This document shows positions 1,260 through 51,458 of a stretch of DNA of 64,000 nt, piece by piece (positions within the stretch are counted from its first letter, which is position 1; each line of letters starts with the position of its first letter). The stretch comes from Candidatus Binatia bacterium (GTDB lineage: Bacteria > Desulfobacterota > Binatia > HRBIN30), in assembly GCA_026415395.1 (NCBI GenBank), contig JAOAHD010000007.1:715304-779303 (forward strand). Reading direction: 5' to 3'. The position numbers and the translations under genes are program-made. The notes under the pieces are model-generated. The model had not been told where the DNA came from and did not search any database. It saw nothing but the letters and a program-made list of their open reading frames with translations.

Positions 1260-1605
1260 GGGGGCGATTTGGGTTCGACGGGGGTCAGGAAGGTTGCGGT
1301 TGCGTGCTCGGGATCCTGGGTACCGGTCAACAACCCCAGGGCTGCTTAAACGCAGACGAACCACTTGCTTTGGCTGCCTAAGCGCAGTCACGTCTCACCA
1401 AGCCCGCGCCCGTAGGGCTGGCTGAGGCGACAGAATTCGGGCTAAGCGGCAGCGGTTGCTCATCCGCTGCCGACGAAAACCCCAGAGCTGGCCGACAGGG
1501 ATCCTGCCCGTGGGAGCCCTGCCGGCGAGAGCAAAACACGCGGCTACGCACGTAGACCCCGCCGCCGACCGCCTCCGGACGGGGGTTCGATTCCCCCCGC
1601 CTCCA
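1260..1605 (+). ncRNA. ssrA: tmRNA (transfer-messenger RNA, SsrA)
   Basis: The 5' GGGGGCG (1260-1266) pairs with the 3' CGCCTCC+A (1598-1605), including the G3:U wobble that marks tRNA-Ala identity. A T-arm GGTTCGATTCC lies at 1584-1594. The internal tag reading frame is AAC GCA GAC GAA CCA CTT GCT TTG GCT GCC TAA (1349-1381) = NADEPLALAA-stop. The 3' CCA is not encoded. Confidence 0.9.
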
Positions 1606-2285
1606 TTTCCGGTCGAAAAACCGGTTAGCGAGCGGCAGGCGAGCCGCCCGCAACAAGGCCCGGGGAGCTAGCTGGGACGCGGTTTTTTGTGTGCTGTTCA
1701 GCGAAGGTCTTGCCTCGGTAGGAGTGCAGTCGTCCTGCCCGCAGCACGACAATCATCCTGCATCCTGCTGCGGGCTACGGAATCGCCTCCTTCGGCTGCG
1801 CTCCGTCCCCGTGCTGTCACGCGCTTGACGCGCCCGGACGCGTGATGCTGCGAGCAATGCGTGCCCGCGCTCTTCGGGCGGACAAGACCACGTTCGTACG
1901 CCCCGGTTCAATACTCTCGGGCCGGCCCGATCTTGCGCCGGACAATTTCGCCGAGCGGATTCAGGCCGAGTCCCCGACGGTGAGGCCCTCGCGCCACGCG
2001 CACCCGAGGTCGTGCTGGGCAGGTCCCATGGGCCAAGGGCCTGCTCGAGTAAAGGCGACCAATGTGGTGGAACCTCGGGGACGCTAATCCGCTGAAATTT
2101 GCGAGCGAGGGCTTTGAGAACGAACAGCAGCAGATGCGCGTCACGGCATGTTTCCTCGAGCGCATCACGCTCGAGGTAGAATCCCGGCAGCAGTTTGTCA
2201 GCGCTGGCGAGGTGTGCCGCACGGTGGAGTTGCCTCGGCCGGCCATTGACATTGGTTGCGGCGCAGCCGTAGGCAGGTAGGGCCG

Positions 2286-16894: not shown

Positions 16895-18505
16895 TCAGCC
16901 TAGCCACCGGTGGGCGTCGATCATCTTTTCTTGAATCGGTACCCCGAGTGGGCACTTGCCAGCGCAAGGCGCAGCGCACGAAACGCAAAGCGAGGCATTC
17001 CGCTCGAGTTGAGCGTAAAGGCGACGTCCCTCGTACTCCCAGTGGTAGTCTTTGGCATACATGCGGTAACGCAAGATGTCGTGAATCGGCAGTTCGTGCT
17101 CGCAGGAATCCAGGCAAACCCCGCAGTGCGGCTGGCAATAATCGCCCGAAACGAGTTGGTCATACCGGCGCAGCAAGGCCACATCTTCGGGCCGCAACTG
17201 TGTGCCCGAGGCGTACAAGTATTCGTCGACCTGCCGCTGCTCGTAAATGGAAATCACCAAACAAGAGACGTTCGGGTTCGACAACACCCAGCGAAAGGCT
17301 GCTTGAGCGTACGAGTCAGCCTCGCGGCGAAACTCGGCAAGGTTGGTGTGCTTAGCCCCCTTGAGTGTCTTCATGGCCACCACCCCGACGTCTCGCGATT
17401 TGGCTTTCGCGAGGATGTGATCGAAGTTCGGCCACATGCCAAAGTGATAGGCCAACATGAGCACGTCGAAACGGCCCGAGTCGATCGCGGCGTTGGCAAT
17501 CTCCTCCAAGTTCGGCGTATGCGTGCTGACTCCCAAAAACCGGACCTTGCCTTGTTCCTTGAGGCGATCGAACGCTTCGTGGATGTTAGGTGCAAACAGC
17601 CGGTCGAGGCGGTCGCACGAATGGATATGAATGAGGTCGACGTAGTCGGTTTGCAGACGCCGCAAACTTCCCTCGACTGCCTCGATAATTTTGGGAACCG
17701 GCGTATCGTTCGGTAGGTGGCCGTCAGCCACGCAAAACTTGGTGGCCACGAACAGCTTGTCTCGATGCCCTTTCATGGCCTCGCCAAGTACACGCTCGGA
17801 GTTGGTGTCGGCGTAGTCGGGTGCTGTGTCGAAGTAGTTGATTCCGCGCTCGATCGCATACCGCGCCACGTTGGCGTTGTTGATGCGCGATGAGCCGAGA
17901 GAAATATCGGACACCATGGCGCCGGTGCGTCCGAGGCGGCGATAACTGCGCACGCGGGCTTCGCTCCACTCCGGTCGCGCCTGCGGGGCAATGGTTTCGA
18001 CCTTGGCGCTGAAGAAGTCACGCCCAACGGCAATCCAGCCGCGATTGCGGGCGACAGCCACCCCGACCCCGCCGATGATTGCGGCCATCTCCGTTCCTGC
18101 GGCTGCGACCACGCGGAGCGCTTGACGCCGGCCGAGCTGGTGCGCTTCGGCAGTGTCGAGGGAGCGAGCGATTTCGATCCAGCGTTCTCTTCCGCCCAAG
18201 CCGCAGGGCAGACACACAGGCACCCGCCAAGCGAAAAACTGCAAGGCCATTGCCGCAGAGAAGCACACCAACGGGATGGCGAGATGCCACCAGGGCAGCA
18301 AACTTCGCTGCACGCCTTCGACGAGATCGTGCAACAGATTCCCTCCCAGCCACCAAGCGAGGAAGAGCCCGAGCGCGTACAGAGCCCAAACATAGGGCCG
18401 CTTGATTTGTACGAAGCGGAGCTGAAGCTCGCCGCCGCAAGCACTGCACTGTTGCTGGTCCATAGCCGCCTCCTGTGTTCTTGGCAGTGTACGGCGGGGG
18501 CGCAC
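16895..18505 (-). CDS. aldo/keto reductase with C-terminal Fe-S Cys cluster and N-terminal zinc-ribbon/2-TM extension
   Basis: The AKR core has ..YRRLGRTGAMVSDISLGS.. and ..YVDLIHIHS.. . The C-terminus is Cys-rich (CQPHCGVCLDSC ... CVSCAAPCAGKCP), typical of Fe-S-containing AKRs. The first ~170 aa contain CSACGG...CLPCGLGG flanking two hydrophobic helices. Confidence 0.65.
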   Translation of the reverse strand: MRPRRTLPRTQEAAMDQQQCSACGGELQLRFVQIKRPYVWALYALGLFLAWWLGGNLLHDLVEGVQRSLLPWWHLAIPLVCFSAAMALQFFAWRVPVCLPCGLGGRERWIEIARSLDTAEAHQLGRRQALRVVAAAGTEMAAIIGGVGVAVARNRGWIAVGRDFFSAKVETIAPQARPEWSEARVRSYRRLGRTGAMVSDISLGSSRINNANVARYAIERGINYFDTAPDYADTNSERVLGEAMKGHRDKLFVATKFCVADGHLPNDTPVPKIIEAVEGSLRRLQTDYVDLIHIHSCDRLDRLFAPNIHEAFDRLKEQGKVRFLGVSTHTPNLEEIANAAIDSGRFDVLMLAYHFGMWPNFDHILAKAKSRDVGVVAMKTLKGAKHTNLAEFRREADSYAQAAFRWVLSNPNVSCLVISIYEQRQVDEYLYASGTQLRPEDVALLRRYDQLVSGDYCQPHCGVCLDSCEHELPIHDILRYRMYAKDYHWEYEGRRLYAQLERNASLCVSCAAPCAGKCPLGVPIQEKMIDAHRWLG

Positions 18506-25748: not shown

Positions 25749-26897
25749 TTGCGAGCGAGGAGCCGTGCAAAGGGAACTGGCCGGGCTAAGCCCAAGCAGC
25801 GCCAGTGGAAAACCTGGTTCGAGTGGTTGCCGATTCCGGCTTGGGTTGAGTCCCAGAGCAAATTGCTGCACGCGAATCAGGCGGCGATCGCCGCATTTGG
25901 AGCGCGCTCCCTCGAGGAGTTGCAACAGGCTTGGAGACGGGTTCACCCTTGCCTTGACCGCAAGTTGCCACTGCGAGGGGACGCGATGGGGACCTCGGCG
26001 GAGGGACCCTTGGAAGTGGAAGCGCGGCATGTAGACGGGCGGCCCCTGTTCTTGGTCATGTTCGCCTCCCTCCTGCCGGCTCGACCACGAGCCATTCTGG
26101 TTGTGGCATGCGCTCGGCAACTCTCGGAAAAGGTCACCCTGGAATTACAGAAGGAGCGGGCCGCCCGAGAAAAGGCCGAGTCGGAGCTTCGGGATCAAAG
26201 CCTCTGGTCCGCACTGGGTACGTTGGTGGGGCGGGTGGCTCATGACATTCGCAACCCCCTGTTTGGAATGCTGGCCACGATCGATGCCCTGGAAGCCAAG
26301 ATTGGCGCGCCTGATGTGCAAGAGTATTTCAACGTCTTGCGGAGCGAGGGGCACCGCTTGAACCGGTTGCTAGAGGAGCTGCTCGCGTTCGGACGCGGGG
26401 GGAGGGCCCGGCGCCGCGAGATTGTGGAGCTCGGCGGCGTCGTTGGGGAGGCGATGCGGCAGTGTGAGCAACTGGCCAAGGAACGAGGTGTTACCTTAAA
26501 AATCGTGCACCGTGCCGCGAGCGCCCGCGTGAATGCGGATGAGGAACATTTGGTGCAGGCGGTGCAGAACATCGTGCAAAACGCCGTCCAGCATTCGCGT
26601 CCAGGGAGCGAAGTGGCGGCATTTACGTCGGTGTTGAAGCGAAAAGGCGGAGGCATGGCGGTGTGCGAGGTGTGGGACGCCGGCCCAGGTTTTCGCCCCG
26701 AGGACCTCCCGCACGTGTTCGAACCGTTCTTTTCGCGGCGCTCTGGGGGTACCGGTCTTGGCCTGGCCATCGCTGCGCGGATCGTGAGCGATCACGGGGG
26801 AACCATCCGCGTGGGCAACCGCCCGCGTGGCGGGGCGTGGGTGCGCATAGAAATTCCGGTGGCGCGAGAAAGAAGAAGCTCAGGCCCAAGCGAATGA
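25749..26897 (+). CDS. cytoplasmic sensor histidine kinase (PAS-like N-terminus, HisKA, HATPase_c)
   Basis: The H-box is ..VAHDIRNPLFGMLATIDAL.. and the G-boxes are ..GPGFRPEDLPHVFEPFFS..GTGLGLAIA.. . The start is uncertain (TTG 25749; first ATG about 240 nt downstream). Confidence 0.75.
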   Translation: MRARSRAKGTGRAKPKQRQWKTWFEWLPIPAWVESQSKLLHANQAAIAAFGARSLEELQQAWRRVHPCLDRKLPLRGDAMGTSAEGPLEVEARHVDGRPLFLVMFASLLPARPRAILVVACARQLSEKVTLELQKERAAREKAESELRDQSLWSALGTLVGRVAHDIRNPLFGMLATIDALEAKIGAPDVQEYFNVLRSEGHRLNRLLEELLAFGRGGRARRREIVELGGVVGEAMRQCEQLAKERGVTLKIVHRAASARVNADEEHLVQAVQNIVQNAVQHSRPGSEVAAFTSVLKRKGGGMAVCEVWDAGPGFRPEDLPHVFEPFFSRRSGGTGLGLAIAARIVSDHGGTIRVGNRPRGGAWVRIEIPVARERRSSGPSE

Positions 26898-28276
26898 GTT
26901 TGCGGGTGCTCGTTGCTGACGACGAAGATACAGTGCTGTTTGCCTTGCGAGAATATTTAGGATCGCGAGGCTGGCAGGTCACAGAGGCACGGAGCGCGGC
27001 AGAACTCTGGCGGGCAATCGAACAGGGACTGCCAGATGTCGTCCTGCTCGATTACCAGCTCCCGGATGCTACTGCGCTCGACATTCTTGCGGCGCTACGG
27101 GAAAGAATCCCGACGGTACCGGTGATCATCCTCACCGGATTTGGTTCGATCGAACTTGCGGTTAAGGCCATGCAATTGGGGGCAAAACAGTTTCTGACCA
27201 AGCCGCTCGATTTGCCGACCTTGGCTACGCTCATTGAGCGGGTGGATAGCGAGCGGCGAGCGGAGGCGTTGTATCTTGTTAGCCGCGAGTCGCAGGTGCG
27301 CCGCGAGGCCAATCCGTTTGTCGGGACCAGCCAGGCCATCCGTCGTGTGGAACAGTTGGCAAAGAAAATTGCTCGGTCCGATGCGGCGGTGTTACTCACT
27401 GGCGAGACGGGTACGGGCAAAGGCGTGCTTGCGCGTTGGCTACATGCTCAAGGCCCGCGCCGAGGGAACCCATTTGTCGACATTAACTGCGCTGGACTGG
27501 GTGGCGAGTTGCTCCACGCTGAACTGTTTGGGTACGAAAAGGGTGCCTTCACAGGGGCGGTGGAACGTAAGCTTGGCCTGGTGGAGCTTGCCCACCGTGG
27601 CACACTGTTTCTCGACGAGATTGGCGACATGGACCTGGCCGTGCAGGCGAAATTGCTCAAGGTGCTGGAAGAGCGTCGCTTTCGGCGCTTGGGCGCCGTT
27701 GCCGATGTCCAAGTCGACATTCGCTTGATCAGTGCCACGCACCATGACCTGACACAGGCCGTGGTGCGTGGCAGTTTTCGCTCGGACCTATACTACCGCA
27801 TCGCCGTGGTCACACTCGAGCTGCCGCCCCTCCGCGAGCGCAAGGAAGACGTTCCTTTGTTGGCCGAGGAAATGCTTCGGCAGTTCGCGCCAGCAGGAAG
27901 GGATGGTCCTTGGAGACTTTCGCCGGAAGCGATTCAGGCTCTGGTGAGGTATTCCTGGCCGGGAAATATTCGGGAGCTGCGAAACGTGCTCGAACGAGCG
28001 ACGTTACTCGCCAATGGGCCCACCATTGGCGCGGAACACTTAGCCGTTGGGGTGGCTGGCTTCGTGGCCGCCCCGAACGTAATGGCTGTAGAGGAGAACG
28101 CGGACCTGCCATTGGCCGAAGTGGAAAAGCGCCACATTCTGCGGGTCTTCGATGCAGTGGGGGGGGATGTGGCCCGAGCTGCCGAGCGCTTAGGGGTGCC
28201 GCGCAGCACGCTGTATCAGCGGTTGCAAAGCTACGGAGTGCAGCCGCGGCGTCCGCGCAAGGCCCGGCGTTCCTAA
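26894..28276 (+). CDS. sigma-54-dependent NtrC-family response regulator (REC + AAA+ sigma54 activator + Fis HTH)
   Basis: The receiver is VLVADDEDTV...VVLLDYQLPD. Walker A is GETGTGKGVLARWLH. The GAFTGA loop reads ELFGYEKGAFTGAV. A C-terminal HTH is present. The ATGA overlaps the HK stop. Confidence 0.85.
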   Translation: MSLRVLVADDEDTVLFALREYLGSRGWQVTEARSAAELWRAIEQGLPDVVLLDYQLPDATALDILAALRERIPTVPVIILTGFGSIELAVKAMQLGAKQFLTKPLDLPTLATLIERVDSERRAEALYLVSRESQVRREANPFVGTSQAIRRVEQLAKKIARSDAAVLLTGETGTGKGVLARWLHAQGPRRGNPFVDINCAGLGGELLHAELFGYEKGAFTGAVERKLGLVELAHRGTLFLDEIGDMDLAVQAKLLKVLEERRFRRLGAVADVQVDIRLISATHHDLTQAVVRGSFRSDLYYRIAVVTLELPPLRERKEDVPLLAEEMLRQFAPAGRDGPWRLSPEAIQALVRYSWPGNIRELRNVLERATLLANGPTIGAEHLAVGVAGFVAAPNVMAVEENADLPLAEVEKRHILRVFDAVGGDVARAAERLGVPRSTLYQRLQSYGVQPRRPRKARRS

Positions 28277-43382: not shown

Positions 43383-43396
43383 GGCAAACGTTTGCC
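43383..43396. promoter_or_regulatory. perfect palindrome GGCAAACGTTTGCC upstream of ptsN-like gene
   Basis: It is an exact 14-bp palindrome in the intergenic region between the Ada-Zn membrane protein stop and ptsN. Confidence 0.3.
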
Positions 43397-43420
43397 TGTC
43401 GCTCGGAGCGCTAGTTGGGG

Positions 43421-43792
43421 CTAACGGCTCGGGTCGTCCCCGCTGCCGGATGAGGGCGGTTCGACCTCGGTGTCCGCGCAGGTGCCACCGCACACCTTAC
43501 ACGGTACGCCACCGCTTGCTTTCGCCTGCGCGCGTTTGATCTTGATGCAGTTGCGCGTACACTTCAGCGCCCACTCGCACTTCAAGCAGTGGTATTTGAG
43601 CGAGCTCGTGTTGAAGGCGACGATTTCGTCATCGCTGTTCGTAGCCAGCGATGTGGCCGACGCGAGCCACACGAGAGCAACGATAGCAACGATCAGGTAA
43701 AAAATTTGCCGGCCCAGGGCTTTGCCGGGCGTTGGGCTCTGACCCGAGATCCGACGGTTCTGCCGTACACGAGTCACTGCTCCATCCCTCAT
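43421..43792 (-). CDS. membrane-anchored protein with Ada-type zinc-binding domain
   Basis: A TM helix IFYLIVAIVALVWLASATSLA is followed by ..KYHCLKCEWALKC...AKASGGVPCKVCGG, which resembles the Ada N-terminal metal-binding motif (YH..C....PC+.C). The longer start at 43942 is possible. Confidence 0.45.
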   Translation of the reverse strand: MRDGAVTRVRQNRRISGQSPTPGKALGRQIFYLIVAIVALVWLASATSLATNSDDEIVAFNTSSLKYHCLKCEWALKCTRNCIKIKRAQAKASGGVPCKVCGGTCADTEVEPPSSGSGDDPSR

Positions 43793-44024
43793 GGTGCGCT
43801 CGAGTGCTGGGCAACATCCAGCGCACAAGTGGCGCCCGCTGACAATTTGTTTTTTAGTTTCGTTCGGGGCGCTGACTTGCCTCTGGTGATGCGGTTGGCA
43901 CTGGAGCGCCGGGCTAGACGAAATTTTTTCGCGAACTTGCATTACATGGGCGTGGCCGCCGGCCTATGCATCCCGCCACAGAGGCTCGGGAGGCCAATAC
44001 TTTCTAGGGGCAAAGGATAGGAGC

Positions 44025-45818
44025 ATGGCGGGAGGTGAGCAGATAGCACGGGGTGCCGGTGTGGACACGTCCTTTGTGCTGCTGGGACACGATCGCCAGG
44101 AAGGCAGGTGGGTTCCCCAGCTCTTGGTGCAGGAGGGGAGTAGAGCGCGTTGTGCGCCTCGTTGGCGAGGCTTCGTTGCCGTGCTCGCTGTGTCTTTTGT
44201 TTTGGCGGCAGTAGCCGAAGGTCAGCTAATTTTTGTGAACGCGGCCGCAAGTGGGGCCAATAATGGATCGACGTGGAGCGACGCATTTACCAAGCTGCAA
44301 GATGCTCTTGCCGCGGCCTCCGCTGGGCAAGACATTTGGGTTGCCCGCGGCGTGTATTACCCGGACGAAGGTGGGGGGCAAACCAACAACGACCGCCTCG
44401 CCACCTTCCAGCTCAAAAATGGGGTGGGCGGCTTCGCCGGCGGGGAAAGTAGCCTCGCCCAACGCAACCAAGCCGTGAACATCACTGTTCTCAGTGGGGA
44501 CATCGACCAAAACGACACCGTCGATGCGAATGGCATCGTGTTGTCACATGCCGACATTGCCGGGGACAACAGTTATCAGGTCGTTAGAGGCAGCAACACG
44601 AACGCGTCCGCCACAGTCGATGGCTTCACGATCACGGGCGGACTGGCCAACGGGAGTGTCACTCCGTGTGGTACCGTGTGCGGGGCGGGAATGCTGAACG
44701 ACAACGGGAGTCCGACTCTGTTCAATCTCGTGTTTGCGGGTAATTTCGCGGCCAATGCAGGTGGGGACATGGCGAATGTCAATGGCAGTAGCCCGGTTTT
44801 AACGAACGTGAGGTTTTTTCAGAACCGCGCCGGGCAAGGGGGGCGGGATGGCAAATTTGGACGGGAGTAGCCCAGTGCTCCGTCAGGCGGTGTTTGTGGG
44901 CAATTTGGCCCAAGTCGGCAGCGGGGGGAACGGTGGGGGGGGATGTTCAACCTCAACTCCAGCCTGCCCCAGTTGACCAACGTGAACTTTGTCGGCAACG
45001 AGACGCTCGTGAATGGTGGGGGTATGTTCAACCAAAACAGCAGCGCTGCAACGCTCGAGAATACCGGATTTTTCGGCAACAGGGCGAGTTTCGGTGGTGG
45101 GCTTTACAACCTCGGGAGCAGCGACGCCGAGCTGGTGAACGTGGTGTTTTCGGGCAACTTGGCGTTTCGCTCTGGGGGCGGTAGCGGCGGGGGAATGTTG
45201 AACAACAGCAGCAGTCCGGTGCTGACCAACGTCACTATCGCGGGCAATGTGGCTGCGGGGTCCATCCAGCAAGGTGGAGGGATGCTGAATGGGAACGCTA
45301 GCCAGCCTGTGCTCGTGAATGTCATTTTGTGGGGGAATGTTGCGGCGAGCGCCAAGGAGATGTCGAACGTCGGGGGCAGTATGCCGCAAATTTCGTTCAG
45401 TCTCGTCGAGGGCTCGGGTGGGAGCGGGATTGGGTGGAATACTGCCTTTGGTGCAGATGGTGGGGGCAACTTGGATGCGGACCCCCTGTTTTCCGACCCT
45501 GATGGAGCAGACAACACGCCGGGCACGTTGGACGACGATTTGCGTTTACGATCCGGGTCACCAGCGATCGACGCCGGAAATAATAGCGCCCCTGGACTGG
45601 CCGGTATCACCACCGATTTTGCGGGTGGGCTTAGGTTCATGGAGGATCCGCTCACGTTCGACACGGGGCAGGGCTTGCCTCCAGTGGTGGATATGGGTGC
45701 CTTCGAGTTCCGCCGTGCGTTATCTGCTCGTGTTCCGGTGCAGAGCTTGTTCGCGCTGGTGCTCGGCGTGCTTGCGCTGCTCTTGGTGGCGCAGCGGAAA
45801 CTGTGGGCGAAAGGTTAG
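44025..45818 (+). CDS. Pmp-repeat / right-handed beta-helix (choice-of-anchor-type) surface protein, interrupted by two compensating frameshifts at poly-G tracts
   Basis: About ten 27-aa repeats of the form GGGM(L/F)N..SSP.LTNV.F.GN.A.. occur. The as-given frame 0 hits TAG at 44868. The repeat continues in the +1 frame (GGMANLDGSSPVLRQAVFVGNLAQVGSGGNGGGG) between G6 (44838-44843) and G8 (44935-44942), then returns to frame 0 at ATG 44943. The C-terminus reads ..DMGAFEF + hydrophobic helix + QRK. Confidence 0.7.
44690..45360 (+). repeat. tandem ~81-bp coding repeats (Pmp-type 27-aa units)
   Basis: Recurring ..ggcggggg(a)atgttcaac..agcagc..gtgctgaccaacgtg.. units occur within the beta-helix gene. 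They are protein-coding, not CRISPR. Confidence 0.6.
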
Positions 45819-46019: not shown

Positions 46020-46739
46020 ATGCCCACGTTACCACAGTTTGCTCCAGCGGAATCGCGAGAAGAGCTGCTTCGGGCAATTGCCAAGGTACAGCGGGGATTG
46101 GTGGAGGAACCGATTGCCCGCTTGCCCTGTGGTGTGGCAGCCATCGATACCCTGCTCCAAGGTGGCTGGCCGCGCGGGCGGCTGAGCGAACTTTACGGCA
46201 CGCGTTCCTGTGGGAAGACCACTTTGGCTTTGCACCTGCTTGCGGCAGTGACGGGCCGGAGAGAAATCGGTGCATGGATCGATGCGGCCGATGCTGTTCA
46301 TCCGTTGTCGCTCGTGGCTGCGGGGGTGGATTTATCCCGCGTGCTTTGGGTGCGTCCGCGTTCGTTCCCGGAAGCGCTCCGCAGTGCCGAGGTTGTACTT
46401 TCTACGAAGGGGATTGCATTAGTGGTTCTCGACTGCGGTGAGCGCGCAGCGCGTTTCCCCAGTCGTGCCGCTTGGCTGCGGTTGCAACGTGCCGCAGCAC
46501 GGTCGCACGCTGTGTTGTTGCTGCTTGCGCCGCACAGTTTGGCTGGCAGTTTTGCTGCGTTGCGCTTGCGCCTACAAGCCAATGGAGGGCAGTGGGTGCG
46601 GGCTGGCCAGAGAGAGTTTTTAGAAGGGCTGCGGGCTTTTGTTGTTGTCGAGCGCAACCGCATCGGGCGTGAAAACCAGCGGCTCGGTTGGGAGGTGCGT
46701 TGGCCGTCTGCTGTCGGTAGCGCGGGGCTGGGTGTGTAA
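46020..46739 (+). CDS. imuA: ImuA (SulA/RecA-fold protein of the mutagenesis cassette)
   Basis: It has ..LPCGVAAIDTLLQGGWPRGRLSELYG..GKTTLALHLLA.. . It is the first gene of the cassette and is followed by imuB and dnaE2. Confidence 0.75.
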   Translation: MPTLPQFAPAESREELLRAIAKVQRGLVEEPIARLPCGVAAIDTLLQGGWPRGRLSELYGTRSCGKTTLALHLLAAVTGRREIGAWIDAADAVHPLSLVAAGVDLSRVLWVRPRSFPEALRSAEVVLSTKGIALVVLDCGERAARFPSRAAWLRLQRAAARSHAVLLLLAPHSLAGSFAALRLRLQANGGQWVRAGQREFLEGLRAFVVVERNRIGRENQRLGWEVRWPSAVGSAGLGV

Positions 46740-46775
46740 GCGTGCACGCGAGGTGTTTTCCTGGAGGCAGGGGCT

Positions 46776-48257
46776 GTGCGGATTGCCTGTCTTTATGTTC
46801 CCGAATTTCCCTTGGCTGCGTGGCTGCGCGCCGAACCCGAACTGCGCACGCAAGCAGTCGTTGTTGTGGAGCGACTCGATCCGCGCAGCCCCCTGTTAGC
46901 AACATCGCGCGCTGCATGGCGCTGGGGCATTGGCCCCGGCATGCGACTCAGCCAAGCACAGAGCCTGTGCCGCACGTTGGTGGTTCGGCCCTGCAGTCGC
47001 TTGTTGCAAGAAAGTGCCCGCGCCGCACTGATGGACGCCGCTAGTTCTTGCTCTCCCTTGGTCGAGCCCGCAGAGGACGGCGTGGTGTACATCGGTCTAG
47101 AAGGGCTCATTGGCCACTGGTGTCGTACGGAGACCCAATGGGCAAGCCAACTCTCTGCACGTTGCGAACGCCTCGGCGTGCCGGCCCGCGTAGCAGTAGC
47201 CAGCACGAAAACGGCAGCCTTGCTGGCTGCGATGCGCCGAGAAGGCGTAACGGTGTTGGACCCAGCGGAAGAAGCCACTTTTCTTGCGCCGGTACCGATT
47301 GCGGCTTTGCGCCCGAGCCCACCCTTGCTTGCTACCTTGGAGCGCTGGGGTATCCACACCATCGGCCAACTCGTGCAACTCCCCTTGGAGGCTGTAGGCA
47401 CGCGCTTGGGGCCGGAGGGGATTGCGCTGATCCGCCGCGCTCGCGGAGAAGAGCTCCAGCCATTGCAACCGCGTCCGTGTCCAATGGTGTTTGAGGAGGG
47501 CATGGAGTTCGATTACGAGATCGACTCTCTCGAACCTTTAACCTTCGTGCTGCGAGCGCTGCTCGACCGAGTCACGGCGCGCCTGGTAGCACGTGGGTTT
47601 GCCTGTGCAGCCTTGCAACTGGGCATGCATTTGTCGGGCACAGGTTGGGAGGATCGCACAGTTGCCGTGGCATACCCAAACAACGAGGTCAAAGCCCTGC
47701 TCGCCTTGTTGCGTGTGCATCTCGAGCAGCAGCCTCCGCAAAATGCCATCGATGCCGTACGGTTGCGGGCGCGCCCCGAGATGCTGCGTGCAAGTCAGCT
47801 CGACTTATTTCGCCCGCCAGGCCCACCCTCGGCTAGCCTGGCCGCCATGCTCGCACAACTTTCCGCTTTGTGTGGCAGCGAGCGCGTGGGAAGCCCAACG
47901 GTGTTGGCCACGCATCGTCTCGACGGTGACGGCATGGTCCCCTTCGGCACGCGCGGGAACTGGCAGAGCGCCGCGCCTCCCCCGAGCGCACTACCACCAC
48001 TGGCCTTGCGCCGTTTTCGCCCGCCGCTTCCCGTGAAAGTGTTTTCCGAGCGTGAACGGCCGGAGTTCGTGCGCGGTCCTGGATTCGGTGGTCGCGTAGT
48101 GTCCTGGGGTGGCCCGTGGCGCATCCGTACGGAGTGGTGGAGCGAAGCGACGTATGTGCGCGATTACTACGACGTGCAACTGAGCGACGGTGGGCTTTAC
48201 CGCCTCTTTCGCGATGAGCAACGGCAACAATGGTTTGCGGATGGGGTGTATGACTGA
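46776..48257 (+). CDS. imuB: ImuB (catalytically inactive Y-family polymerase-like protein)
   Basis: The N-terminus MRIACLYVPEFPLAAWLRAEPELRTQAVVVVE is typical of ImuB, with Y-family fold spacing. It is 493 aa. Confidence 0.8.
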   Translation: MRIACLYVPEFPLAAWLRAEPELRTQAVVVVERLDPRSPLLATSRAAWRWGIGPGMRLSQAQSLCRTLVVRPCSRLLQESARAALMDAASSCSPLVEPAEDGVVYIGLEGLIGHWCRTETQWASQLSARCERLGVPARVAVASTKTAALLAAMRREGVTVLDPAEEATFLAPVPIAALRPSPPLLATLERWGIHTIGQLVQLPLEAVGTRLGPEGIALIRRARGEELQPLQPRPCPMVFEEGMEFDYEIDSLEPLTFVLRALLDRVTARLVARGFACAALQLGMHLSGTGWEDRTVAVAYPNNEVKALLALLRVHLEQQPPQNAIDAVRLRARPEMLRASQLDLFRPPGPPSASLAAMLAQLSALCGSERVGSPTVLATHRLDGDGMVPFGTRGNWQSAAPPPSALPPLALRRFRPPLPVKVFSERERPEFVRGPGFGGRVVSWGGPWRIRTEWWSEATYVRDYYDVQLSDGGLYRLFRDEQRQQWFADGVYD

Positions 48258-48302
48258 CAGCGCTCGTGTTCGGGACATGCTTTGCCGGAAAGGGCAGCAA
48301 CG

Positions 48303-51300
48303 ATGAACTACGTCGAGCTCCGCTGTCATTCGGCATTTCACTTTCTCGCCGCCGCTTCCTTGCCGGAAGACCTCGTTGCCCGCGCGGCTGCTCTCGGGTA
48401 CGACGTGTGTGCTCTAGGCGATGCCGACGGCGTGTACGGTGCCCCGCGCTTTTACCGGGCCGCACGCGAGGCTGGGATCCGGCCGTTAGTGGGCTGTGAG
48501 TTGACACTACGGCGCTGGGGTGAGGAAGGCCAATCCACGCGCCGCCCGCCCACACACTTGTATGTGTTGGTGGCTACTCGCACAGGTTACAGCAATCTGT
48601 GCCGTTTAATCACCCAGAACAAGCGCAAGTTTCCCAAGGGGGCAGCCGTGCTCACATGGGAAGAATTGACGGGGTTTACCGATGGGCTCATTTGTCTGGC
48701 CCGCGACGCATTGTTTCCCGAACCGTTTTGCTTTGCCCCCGAAGCCCTGCAAACACTTCGCCGCTTGTTCCCTGGCCGTTTGTATCTCGAACTCCACCGC
48801 CACGGTGATCCGGCAGAGGAGCGCCACAACCGCATTCTGTGCGACGTGGCAGCCCGCTTCGGTGTGCCCCTCGTGGCCACCAACGACGTGCGTTACGCCG
48901 TACCCGAGCTGCAATCCCTCTGCGACGTGCTCACCTGCATTCGCCACCACACCACGATCGATGCCGCCGGATGGCTGCTCGAGCGCAATGCCGAGCGTTA
49001 CCTCAAACCGCCAGCAGAGATGGAGCAACTGTTCAGCGATTTTCCGGCGGCCGTCCGCAATACACGGGCGATTGCCGAGCAATGCGAATTTACCCTCGCC
49101 AACTTGGGTTATCGTTTCCCGGAATATCCCGTGCCGGCAGGGCAAACAGCGCAAGAGCATTTGCGGGAGTTGGTCTACCGCGGTGCGCGTGAAAGTTACC
49201 GTTGCCTGACGGCAAAAGTGCGGGGCCAGCTCGAACACGAGCTGCATGTAATCGGCAAACTCGGGTTAGCAGGATATTTTTTGATCGTTTGGGACATTGT
49301 TCGCTTTTGCCGCGAGCAAGGAATCCTCGCACAAGGGCGCGGCTCTGCCGCCAACAGTGCCGTATGTTACGCCTTGGGGATCACGGCAGTCGATCCGGTG
49401 GGGATGGAGCTTCTCTTCGAACGCTTCCTTTCGGAAGAACGGGGTGAATGGCCGGATATCGACATTGACCTTCCAAGCGGCGACCAGCGCGAGCGCGTGC
49501 TGCAGTATGTGTATGGCCGTTACGGTCCTCATGGCGCTGCCATGACCGCCAATGTGATCACCTACCGCTTGCGCAGTGCCGTGCGGGAAGTGGGGAAAGC
49601 GTTGGGGTTTTCGTTGGAGCAGCTCGACCGTTTGGCCAAGTTCCTTCACCGCTTCGAATTCCGTGATGCGCACGACAACGACCTCCCGGCTCACATGCAT
49701 GCGGCTGGGCTCGACCCACAGGCCCCCCGATCGCGTTTGCTCGTGCAACTCGTCGAGCGCATTTTGCACCTCCCGCGCCACTTGGGTCAGCATTCTGGCG
49801 GAATGATTATCGCGGCCGGGCGGCTCGACGAAATCGTGCCCTTGGAGCCCGCGCGCATGCCCGGGCGTGTGGTCGTGCAGTGGGACAAGGACGATTGTGC
49901 CGACCTTGGAATCATCAAGGTCGACTTGCTCGGCCTCGGCATGATGGCCGTTTTGGAGGAAGCGTTACCGCTGGTCCGCCAGCACGAAGGCGTGGAGATC
50001 GACCTCGCTCACTTGCCCCCCAACGACCCCAAAACTTACGCGCAACTGCAGCAAGCCGACACGGTCGGCGTCTTCCAAGTAGAAAGCCGCGCGCAGATGG
50101 CCACGTTGCCGCGTCTCCGGCCACGGTGTTTTTACGACTTGGTGGTGGAGGTGGCCCTGATCCGCCCCGGACCGATTGTTGGTCAAATGGTGCATCCTTA
50201 CCTGCGCCGCCGCGCCGGACGCGAACCGATTACGTACCCCCATCCGTCGCTCGAACCTATTCTGCGGCGCACCCTTGGGGTGCCGTTGTTTCAAGAACAG
50301 TTGCTACGTATTGCCATGACGGTGGCCGGCTTCTCGGGTGGCGAAGCCGAAGAGCTCCGGCGGGCCATGGGGTTTAAGCGCTCGCTCGAACGGATGCGCG
50401 CCATCGAAGCCAAACTGCGTGCCGGCATGGCTGCCCGCGGCATCGTCGGCAAAACGGCGGAAGAAATCGTGCGCAGCATTACCTCGTTTGCTCTTTATGG
50501 GTTCCCTGAATCACATGCTGCCAGCTTTGCCTTGTTGGCGTATGCTTCGGCATACCTCAAGGCACACCATCCCGCAGCGTTTACTTGCGCCTTGCTGAAC
50601 AATTGGCCCATGGGTTTTTATCACCCCGCTACCATTGTGAAGGATGCCCAACGCCACGGGGTGCGGGTGCTGCCGATCGATGTGACCCGCTCGACGTGGC
50701 GGTGCAGCTTGGAGCGGATGGCGGCTGGGGAGGGAAGCCGGCTTTGCTTGCGGCTCGGGCTCAAGTACGTGCGGGGTTTGCGCGCAGAAGCAGGCGAGCG
50801 CATTGTGCGGGAACGAGAAACAAAACCCTTTGCCTCGCTGGAGGATTTTGTTCATCGCTGTGCTTTGCGCGAGAGCGAGCTTGCCACGCTGGCGGAAATC
50901 GGGGCATTGGCAGCGTTCGGACACACGCGCCGGAGTGCCTTGTGGCAAGCCGCTGCTGTTGCGCGTGGCCCGCTGTTTGCCGCTGCAACCGAGCAAGACC
51001 ACAATAATGAAGTCGAGCCGAGCCCTCTGCCAGAGATGCTCCCCGTGGAGCGTACTTTGGCAGACTTAAAGGGAAGTGGCGTTACCGTTGGCCCGCATCT
51101 CATGGCACATTGGCGAGCGCAGCTCGAGGCACGAGGCTTTGTACCGGCACGCACTCTACCCCACTGCCACCACGGACAGTGGGTGAAAGTGGCGGGGCAT
51201 GTCATCGTCCGCCAACGCCCAGGTACAGCCAAGGGCTTTTGTTTTCTCACGCTGGAAGACGAAACTGGCTTGGCCAATGTGGTTCTGACCCCGGCATTCT

Positions 51301-51458
51301 TCGAACGGCACCGTACCTTGTTGCTCACCGCACCTTTGCTGGAAGTAGAAGGTTATTTGCAGCACGTCGATGGGGTCATTCACGTTCGTGCGCAAAGATT
51401 GCATCGCCTTGCGCTCTCCCAGGCACTCACCTCCTCTGAGCTCACAAGCGACGCATGA
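48303..51458 (+). CDS. dnaE2: error-prone DNA polymerase DnaE2 (ImuC)
   Basis: It starts with the PHP domain MNYVELRCHSAFHFLAAAS.. and is about 1050 aa of Pol III alpha homolog without a tau-binding tail. ATG 48303 is preferred. Confidence 0.9.
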   Translation: MNYVELRCHSAFHFLAAASLPEDLVARAAALGYDVCALGDADGVYGAPRFYRAAREAGIRPLVGCELTLRRWGEEGQSTRRPPTHLYVLVATRTGYSNLCRLITQNKRKFPKGAAVLTWEELTGFTDGLICLARDALFPEPFCFAPEALQTLRRLFPGRLYLELHRHGDPAEERHNRILCDVAARFGVPLVATNDVRYAVPELQSLCDVLTCIRHHTTIDAAGWLLERNAERYLKPPAEMEQLFSDFPAAVRNTRAIAEQCEFTLANLGYRFPEYPVPAGQTAQEHLRELVYRGARESYRCLTAKVRGQLEHELHVIGKLGLAGYFLIVWDIVRFCREQGILAQGRGSAANSAVCYALGITAVDPVGMELLFERFLSEERGEWPDIDIDLPSGDQRERVLQYVYGRYGPHGAAMTANVITYRLRSAVREVGKALGFSLEQLDRLAKFLHRFEFRDAHDNDLPAHMHAAGLDPQAPRSRLLVQLVERILHLPRHLGQHSGGMIIAAGRLDEIVPLEPARMPGRVVVQWDKDDCADLGIIKVDLLGLGMMAVLEEALPLVRQHEGVEIDLAHLPPNDPKTYAQLQQADTVGVFQVESRAQMATLPRLRPRCFYDLVVEVALIRPGPIVGQMVHPYLRRRAGREPITYPHPSLEPILRRTLGVPLFQEQLLRIAMTVAGFSGGEAEELRRAMGFKRSLERMRAIEAKLRAGMAARGIVGKTAEEIVRSITSFALYGFPESHAASFALLAYASAYLKAHHPAAFTCALLNNWPMGFYHPATIVKDAQRHGVRVLPIDVTRSTWRCSLERMAAGEGSRLCLRLGLKYVRGLRAEAGERIVRERETKPFASLEDFVHRCALRESELATLAEIGALAAFGHTRRSALWQAAAVARGPLFAAATEQDHNNEVEPSPLPEMLPVERTLADLKGSGVTVGPHLMAHWRAQLEARGFVPARTLPHCHHGQWVKVAGHVIVRQRPGTAKGFCFLTLEDETGLANVVLTPAFFERHRTLLLTAPLLEVEGYLQHVDGVIHVRAQRLHRLALSQALTSSELTSDA

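Follow-up and report, generated by a model that had tools for sequence, protein, structure and literature searches.

The 64-kb stretch of DNA analysed here (below, the window) carries at 44025–45818 of its forward strand one gene of about 597 codons whose reading frame, according to the ORFs and their translations, is lost at a run of six G's at 44838–44843 and regained at a run of eight at 44935–44942. The gene is an ordinary frameshifted member of a large known family and, judged from its sequence and its neighbours, it is the orthologue of an intact single-copy gene of Binatia-like bacteria. The explanation that we rank first, at a probability of about 0.5, is that the lesions are real products of slippage and that the gene, freed from selection, is a young pseudogene. 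Such ordinary recent pseudogenisation at slippage-prone sites is a third explanation, absent from an earlier note on this DNA that offered homopolymer sequencing errors or slipped-strand phase variation of a surface antigen.

One gene with two frame changes at G runs

Frame 0 opens with the ATG at 44025 and closes, as the earlier note said and translation confirms, with a TAG at 44868–44870 that orthologue DNA places inside the true-frame Ser-Ser codons AGT AGC; the resulting 281-aa ORF reads NRAGQGG up to the break and RDGKFGRE after it (C-terminal letters NRAGQGGRDGKFGRE). The first G6 run (44838–44843) is followed by a C and three further G's (44844–44847), and it places the downstream sequence one nucleotide out of the coding frame. 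Read in the +1 frame, 44839–44942 gives GGGMANLDGSSPVLRQAVFVGNLAQVGSGGNGGGG, after which frame 0 resumes as GGMFNLNSS, with an ATG at 44943 and an ORF that runs to the stop at 45818. The segment that codes in the +1 frame only, 44844–44942, makes up coil 3 of the protein (below) and is 33 codons long; the 24 codons originally given for it are correct for the stretch after the TAG, not for the whole. It is conserved in all orthologues, falls within single-frame tblastn HSPs in the three orthologous loci L001, L002 and L004, and contains an additional, in-phase G6 run at 44923–44928. Comparison with the orthologues confines the first frame change to 44838–44844 and the second to 44932–44942, so both breaks coincide with G runs, and runs of six or more make up merely 1.8% of the gene's length. 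Both breaks also lie within the block of beta-helix coils, at the starts of coils 3 and 4.

Removal of one G from the first run and addition of one to the G8 run (44935–44942) gives an uninterrupted 597-aa product, and the repaired frame aligns unbroken, end to end, to nine intact orthologues, which bears out the original reading of one gene with two mutually cancelling frame changes. The G5 + G9 repair then proposed thus restores the frame, but G9 is not the only remedy at the second run: shortening it by two to G6 reproduces exactly the spacing GGN-GGGMFNLN found in 9/9 orthologues, whereas G9 introduces a Gly present in 0/9. At the first site, deletion of C 44844 in place of a G (giving a G9 run) likewise restores QGGGM. 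Relative to an orthologue-like state the changes are therefore +1 in the first run and +2 in the second, a net +3. We considered whether the second frameshift rescues the product of the first and rejected the idea, since the TAG at 44868 is within the out-of-frame segment. No one slip restores the ORF; if run 1 alone is corrected run 2 remains out of phase, and if run 2 alone is corrected the TAG remains. The present state is accordingly a double-OFF one that needs two independent events to undo, one of them in a short G6 run.

Apart from its indels the gene shows no sign of decay. It is the sole deviant in seven otherwise invariant alignment columns (1–15 in the orthologues), which is no excess of unique substitutions, and it contains no stops beyond those that the indels create. 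The absence of other decay means that the pseudogene, if it is one, is very young. A promoter and terminator scan around the gene found nothing above shuffled expectation.

The repaired protein

The repaired gene encodes, by prediction from its sequence, a secreted or anchored right-handed beta-helix protein of about 597 aa and of the choice-of-anchor Q type, with predicted export features. Residues 505–562 (45537–45710) match the NCBIfam choice-of-anchor Q model NF041518 at 29.5 bits against a cutoff of 25 (E = 6.5e-07), and there is no second NCBIfam match at E ≤ 1. No Pfam family, PF02415 included, matches the repaired protein at E ≤ 1, and the Pmp middle domain (PF07548) and the autotransporter barrel (PF03797) are absent from it in the same search. 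Precomputed Pfam domains are likewise lacking in the close orthologues, whereas homologues at 42–47% identity carry PF02415. The "Pmp-repeat" label that the gene was first given therefore holds only loosely, by way of these distant homologues; the curated match of the protein itself is NF041518.

The description of the product as a beta-helix surface protein fared better. Eight tandem coils of 26–32 aa (residues 220–446; 44682–45362) follow the consensus GGGM.N..SSP.L.NV.F.GN.A, and the sequence and the structural model both predict ends of a secreted or anchored type. An AlphaFold2 model built from a 10-sequence alignment is poor overall (mean pLDDT 51); its repeat core, at pLDDT 60–90, is a right-handed solenoid with three strands per coil, as in a right-handed parallel beta-helix. 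Foldseek and a PDB sequence search returned no significant match for the repaired protein.

A Kyte-Doolittle scan finds an N-terminal hydrophobic segment at residues 46–68 (RWRGFVAVLAVSFVLAAVAEGQL; 44160–44228), with a helix predicted at residues 46–59, which is likely to be a signal peptide or an anchor. The true start may be the TTG at 44124 or the GTG at 44127, just ahead of this segment. At the other end, alignment, hydrophobicity and predicted structure agree on a hydrophobic helix followed by basic residues (residues 570–592, VPVQSLFALVLGVLALLLVAQRK; 45732–45794); it is conserved among the orthologues and is probably a membrane anchor or sorting signal. In this region (45690–45818, columns 620–660 of protein alignment A1) orthologues of the Binatia group share GA[YF]EFRR...VPVxS, a hydrophobic helix and R/K, a pattern that resembles a PEP-CTERM-type sorting signal and has no NCBIfam model at E ≤ 1.

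Orthologues and synteny

At E ≤ 1e-3 a search with the repaired protein finds 3813 homologues, and several bear the name choice-of-anchor Q or beta-helix repeat protein. The nearest are intact proteins of 548–628 aa with 62–71% identity over 81–99% of the query. Both organism-named nearest proteins and locus L002 are labelled Candidatus Binatia; the other near orthologues come from Bacterium HR30 (L004), from a MAG labelled Myxococcales (L001) and from metagenomes. Against each of these three orthologous DNA loci the repaired protein gives a single tblastn HSP. The window and HR30, the source of the closest orthologue, share the gene order sucB, sucA, PTS EIIA, beta-helix gene, imuA-like, imuB, dnaE2, which establishes the orthology, and their sucA products are 91% identical in amino acid sequence. 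Compared with the intact syntenic gene of HR30, the window's gene has more than one independent lesion, namely the two frameshifts and the 9-nt deletion described below. HR30 has about 5.7 kb of additional ORFs (535, 479 and 397 aa; 4250–10000 of L004) between the EIIA and beta-helix genes, which have no counterpart in the window's 43388–44024; the window has instead, on the reverse strand at 43421–43942, a Cys-rich 173-aa ORF with no Pfam match and a low coding score.

The 64-kb window contains no paralogue of the gene. Exact-product look-ups with four window proteins found no second copy from the same species, a pattern spanning the second run with any run length allowed had 0 matches in metagenome DNA, and scans of genomes and metagenomes for related loci gave a best identity of 69%.

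Frameshifts also occur in two of the six close orthologous DNA loci, each at a site of its own and neither at a long homopolymer. In L080 (GCA_026004215.1, BPIR01000002.1; 6245–6290) the break lies between WVARG and VYYPDEG, where G3 stands in place of an expected G4. In L081 (GCA_053494715.1, JBRBXP010000021.1; 5927–5990) it lies between SSQPT and LQQV and is a 1-nt loss relative to L002, to which L081 is 91% identical in DNA sequence; gene calling splits the L081 gene into an overlapping pair of 284 and 348 aa. These broken orthologues suggest that the orthologue group is often dispensable, and the recurrent breakage would reflect frequent loss of this group, a tendency of such genes to be misassembled, or a combination of the two. 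Among about 155 further homologous loci a collinear frame switch occurs only in L151 (Ga0308402_1003202), a distant homologue at 42–44% identity whose frame changes at about 960–985 in a C9 run (TTCCCCCCCCCGAC). Besides the window's gene, L151 is alone among the 161 homologous loci in switching frame at a homopolymer.

A 9-nt in-frame deletion

Comparison of the DNA and protein with L004, L002, L001, L080 and L081 reveals another departure upstream of the frame changes, a 9-nt in-frame deletion between about 44426 and 44427 (within 44421–44435). Where HR30 reads GGG GTG GGG GTT TAC GGC GGT TTT, the window reads GGG GTG GGC GGC TTC (NGV-GGF), so that x-[VIL]-Y is removed from the motif G-V-x-[VIL]-Y-G-G-F and a gap appears in columns 188–190 of alignment A1. 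The strict motif is present in 106/120 homologues from several phyla, and close variants are present in most of the others. The site of the deletion is a GGGGT(G/T) direct repeat, and deletion within a short direct repeat is typical of slippage. A base-calling artefact is unlikely here; we take the deletion to be harmful, but it might be tolerated.

The G runs in orthologues

The orthologue comparison recommended in the earlier note, when run, did not find the long G runs kept, and the gene is intact in those genomes. At the first site orthologue DNA reads GGC GGC GGC, GGC GCC GGG or GGT GCC GGC (protein Q-G-[GA]-G-M, with no long G run), and at the second GGC GGT GGA, GCG GGT GGA or GCC GGG GGG. 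In L004, L001 and L002 the same Gly residues are thus spelled by a mixture of codons; a G6 occurs in L002 alone, at the second site, and none of the three maintains a contingency tract. Within the window's gene GGG makes up 40% of Gly codons against 25% in the window's other genes (Fisher p = 0.0018), and GGG-GGG is used at 4/28 Gly-Gly pairs against 3/107 elsewhere (p = 0.03). This bias gives mild support to a tract-friendly choice of codons and is equally consistent with the atypical codon usage of a Gly-rich, weakly expressed gene. As for tract length, G8 is borderline and G6 short for hypermutability, and the (G6, G8) state has no single-change route to an open frame.

Frame integrity in the rest of the window

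The window is not generally error-prone. A self-trained codon model calls about 55 genes in it, of which this one alone is split, and 26 of the 30 neighbouring ORFs scanned match a Pfam family; 0/26 are split and 25/26 have essentially full-length domains. The exception, at 16895–18505, has a partial Aldo_ket_red match, and a coding-score check shows it to be one continuous frame (a GC3 frame plot was too noisy for use). sucA, imuB and dnaE2 align over their full lengths with HR30.

The window contains 29 homopolymers of at least six, and besides the two at issue about 17 of them are in frame within intact ORFs. Only two homopolymers of at least seven occur in the 64 kb. The other one, a G8 at 28159–28166, was considered as a further frameshift and rejected; it is in frame, reading GTG GGG GGG GAT (V-G-G-D) ahead of a C-terminal HTH in an intact sigma-54-type response regulator (ORF 26663–28276). 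Were two random errors distributed over the 29 runs of at least six, both would fall within this gene's five runs with p = 0.025.

Weighing the explanations

If the gene is a young pseudogene, replication slippage in its G-rich Gly-Gly coding sequence would have added one nucleotide to the run at 44838–44843 and two (or three, followed by loss of one) to that at 44935–44942, a separate 9-nt in-frame deletion at about 44426 would have removed a near-universal motif, and translation from the normal start would stop at the TAG at 44868 and leave 281 aa that lack the C-terminal half with its choice-of-anchor Q domain and anchor. Several observations argue for this. One gene shows three indel departures from the family pattern, one of which (9 nt) is not a typical homopolymer miscall; the assembly is clean elsewhere in the window; such clustering of lesions is expected once selection on a gene ceases; and 2/6 close orthologous loci are also broken, against 1 of about 155 others. 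From these we infer that the lesions are present in the organism's DNA and do not stem from assembly alone. Against it, both breaks fall exactly at G runs, the sites most prone to base-calling and polishing errors, and the broken orthologues in other MAGs might themselves be assembly errors. An artefact of this sort, with an intact gene in the organism (G5 + G6 or G9) and wrong run lengths in the consensus through, for example, residual long-read homopolymer errors or poor polishing of a G-rich stretch, is a possibility that we take seriously and hold to be the less likely one. In its favour, both breaks lie in G runs, the second in one of the only two homopolymers of at least seven in 64 kb, and the two changes cancel; indels aside, the gene is fully open, it is conserved, and its unique substitutions are not in excess, and the L080 orthologue, on a 1.27-Mb contig of a related MAG, has a G4-to-G3 type of frameshift that resembles a long-read error. 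However, no other gene among the roughly 55 is split, the other G8 and some 17 further runs of at least six are in frame in intact ORFs, two random homopolymer errors would both fall in this gene with a probability of only about 0.025, a G5-to-G6 overcall would be unusual for so clean an assembly, and the 9-nt deletion in the same gene is left unexplained.

Slipped-strand phase variation, in which the G runs would act as contingency tracts, turning a surface beta-helix protein on and off reversibly, and the consensus would record a double-OFF state, we consider unlikely. It accords with breaks at poly-G runs of which the G8 is long enough for raised slippage rates, with the excess of GGG codons and GGG-GGG pairs (p = 0.0018 and 0.03), with the undegraded state of the gene apart from its indels, with the frameshift of the distant homologue L151 at a C9 run, and with the precedent of chlamydial PmpG, a beta-helix family of related repeats that switches by poly-G length (PMC6740158). 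On balance the evidence nevertheless disfavours an evolved contingency locus: the syntenic and other orthologues, which use mixed Gly codons, do not conserve the runs; the first run, at 5–6 G, is short for a switch; both runs are mid-gene; the ON state is two independent slips away, which would make reversion slow; the gene has lost a near-universal motif; and with two homopolymers of at least seven the window shows no sign of a repeat-rich "phasome". The "multi-state switching" that two sites were once proposed to give is speculation. More doubtful again is the wider proposition that two poly-G runs in a choice-of-anchor Q beta-helix surface protein serve a free-living, probably thermophilic Binatia-like bacterium as a stochastic switch. 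Least probable by far, in our estimate, is recoding, by which transcriptional slippage on the G runs or programmed ribosomal frameshifting would yield full-length protein from the sequence as given. Its sole support is the presence of homopolymer runs at both frame junctions; the orthologues make the same protein in one frame without the runs and so have no conserved recoding signal, two separate events per molecule would be required, and neither a stimulatory structure nor a conserved slippery heptamer was noted. Under the pseudogene explanation, then, the gene has only recently become a pseudogene, or at best sits in an OFF state that arose at mutational hot spots and has no adaptive role; it is not a tuned switch.

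Comparison with known systems

The closest likeness is to the choice-of-anchor Q and beta-helix repeat proteins of environmental bacteria, with which the window protein has in common the N-terminal GVxIYGGF region, GGGM/F.GN coils, a D.DPLF...SPAIDAGN tail and a variable C-terminal anchor. The window copy differs from them in being frameshifted twice and in lacking x-[VIL]-Y of GVxIYGGF, and its anchor (VPVxS, a TM segment and R/K, common to the Binatia orthologues) fits no curated sorting-signal model.

Members of the chlamydial PmpG group, like the window protein, are beta-helix surface proteins of short Gly-rich repeats. Their motifs, GGA[ILV] and FxxN, are similar to the GGG[ML] and F.GN of the window's eight coils, but not identical. 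Chlamydial Pmps combine PF02415, PF07548 and PF03797, and changes in the length of a poly-G tract in PmpG cause frameshifts and phase variation (PMC6740158). The window protein, by contrast, has none of these three domains and ends in a single hydrophobic helix; the Chlamydia poly-G tracts have conserved positions and lengths that vary among strains and paralogues, whereas the window's runs are absent from the orthologues. The passenger beta-helices of autotransporters (Bordetella Vag8 and pertactin) and pectate-lyase-like enzymes are alike at the level of the fold only (7–17% identity), and unlike the autotransporters the window protein has no translocator domain and no sequence match to a PDB chain.

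Poly-G contingency loci of Neisseria and Campylobacter resemble the present case in having a G run inside a surface-related coding region and frame-dependent expression. Their tracts typically comprise at least eight G's near the 5' end, are kept across strains and switch in one step; the window's runs are two in number, short, mid-gene and not conserved, and require two steps.

For annotation, ORFs 44025–44870 and 44943–45818 should be treated as one frameshifted choice-of-anchor Q beta-helix gene and not as two proteins. That the orthologue group is broken in several Binatia-like assemblies is a hint that cells can do without the protein, or else that assembly tends to fail at G-rich beta-helix genes. 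Were heterogeneity in run length real, which nothing here makes likely, homopolymer-driven switching of a surface protein would extend to an uncultured environmental lineage, and a true switch would place a PmpG-type contingency locus in a bacterium that is no host-associated pathogen, in a protein of different anchoring architecture.

Other features of the window

A complete damage-inducible mutagenesis cassette at 46020–51458 (forward strand) consists of an imuA-like gene (RecA-fold, 239 aa), imuB (Y-family, 493 aa) and dnaE2 (1058 aa); it is encoded on the broken gene's strand, 200 nt downstream, in an arrangement identical to that in HR30. The 536-aa ORF at 16895–18505 (reverse strand) has an unusual architecture and an intact frame: a membrane and Cys region forms its N-terminus, an aldo/keto reductase domain that covers only profile positions 22–195 of 291 occupies the middle, and the C-terminus is Cys-rich. 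A tmRNA gene at 1260–1608 (forward strand) matches Rfam RF00023 at 149 bits, and ARAGORN gives its tag peptide as ADEPLALAA.
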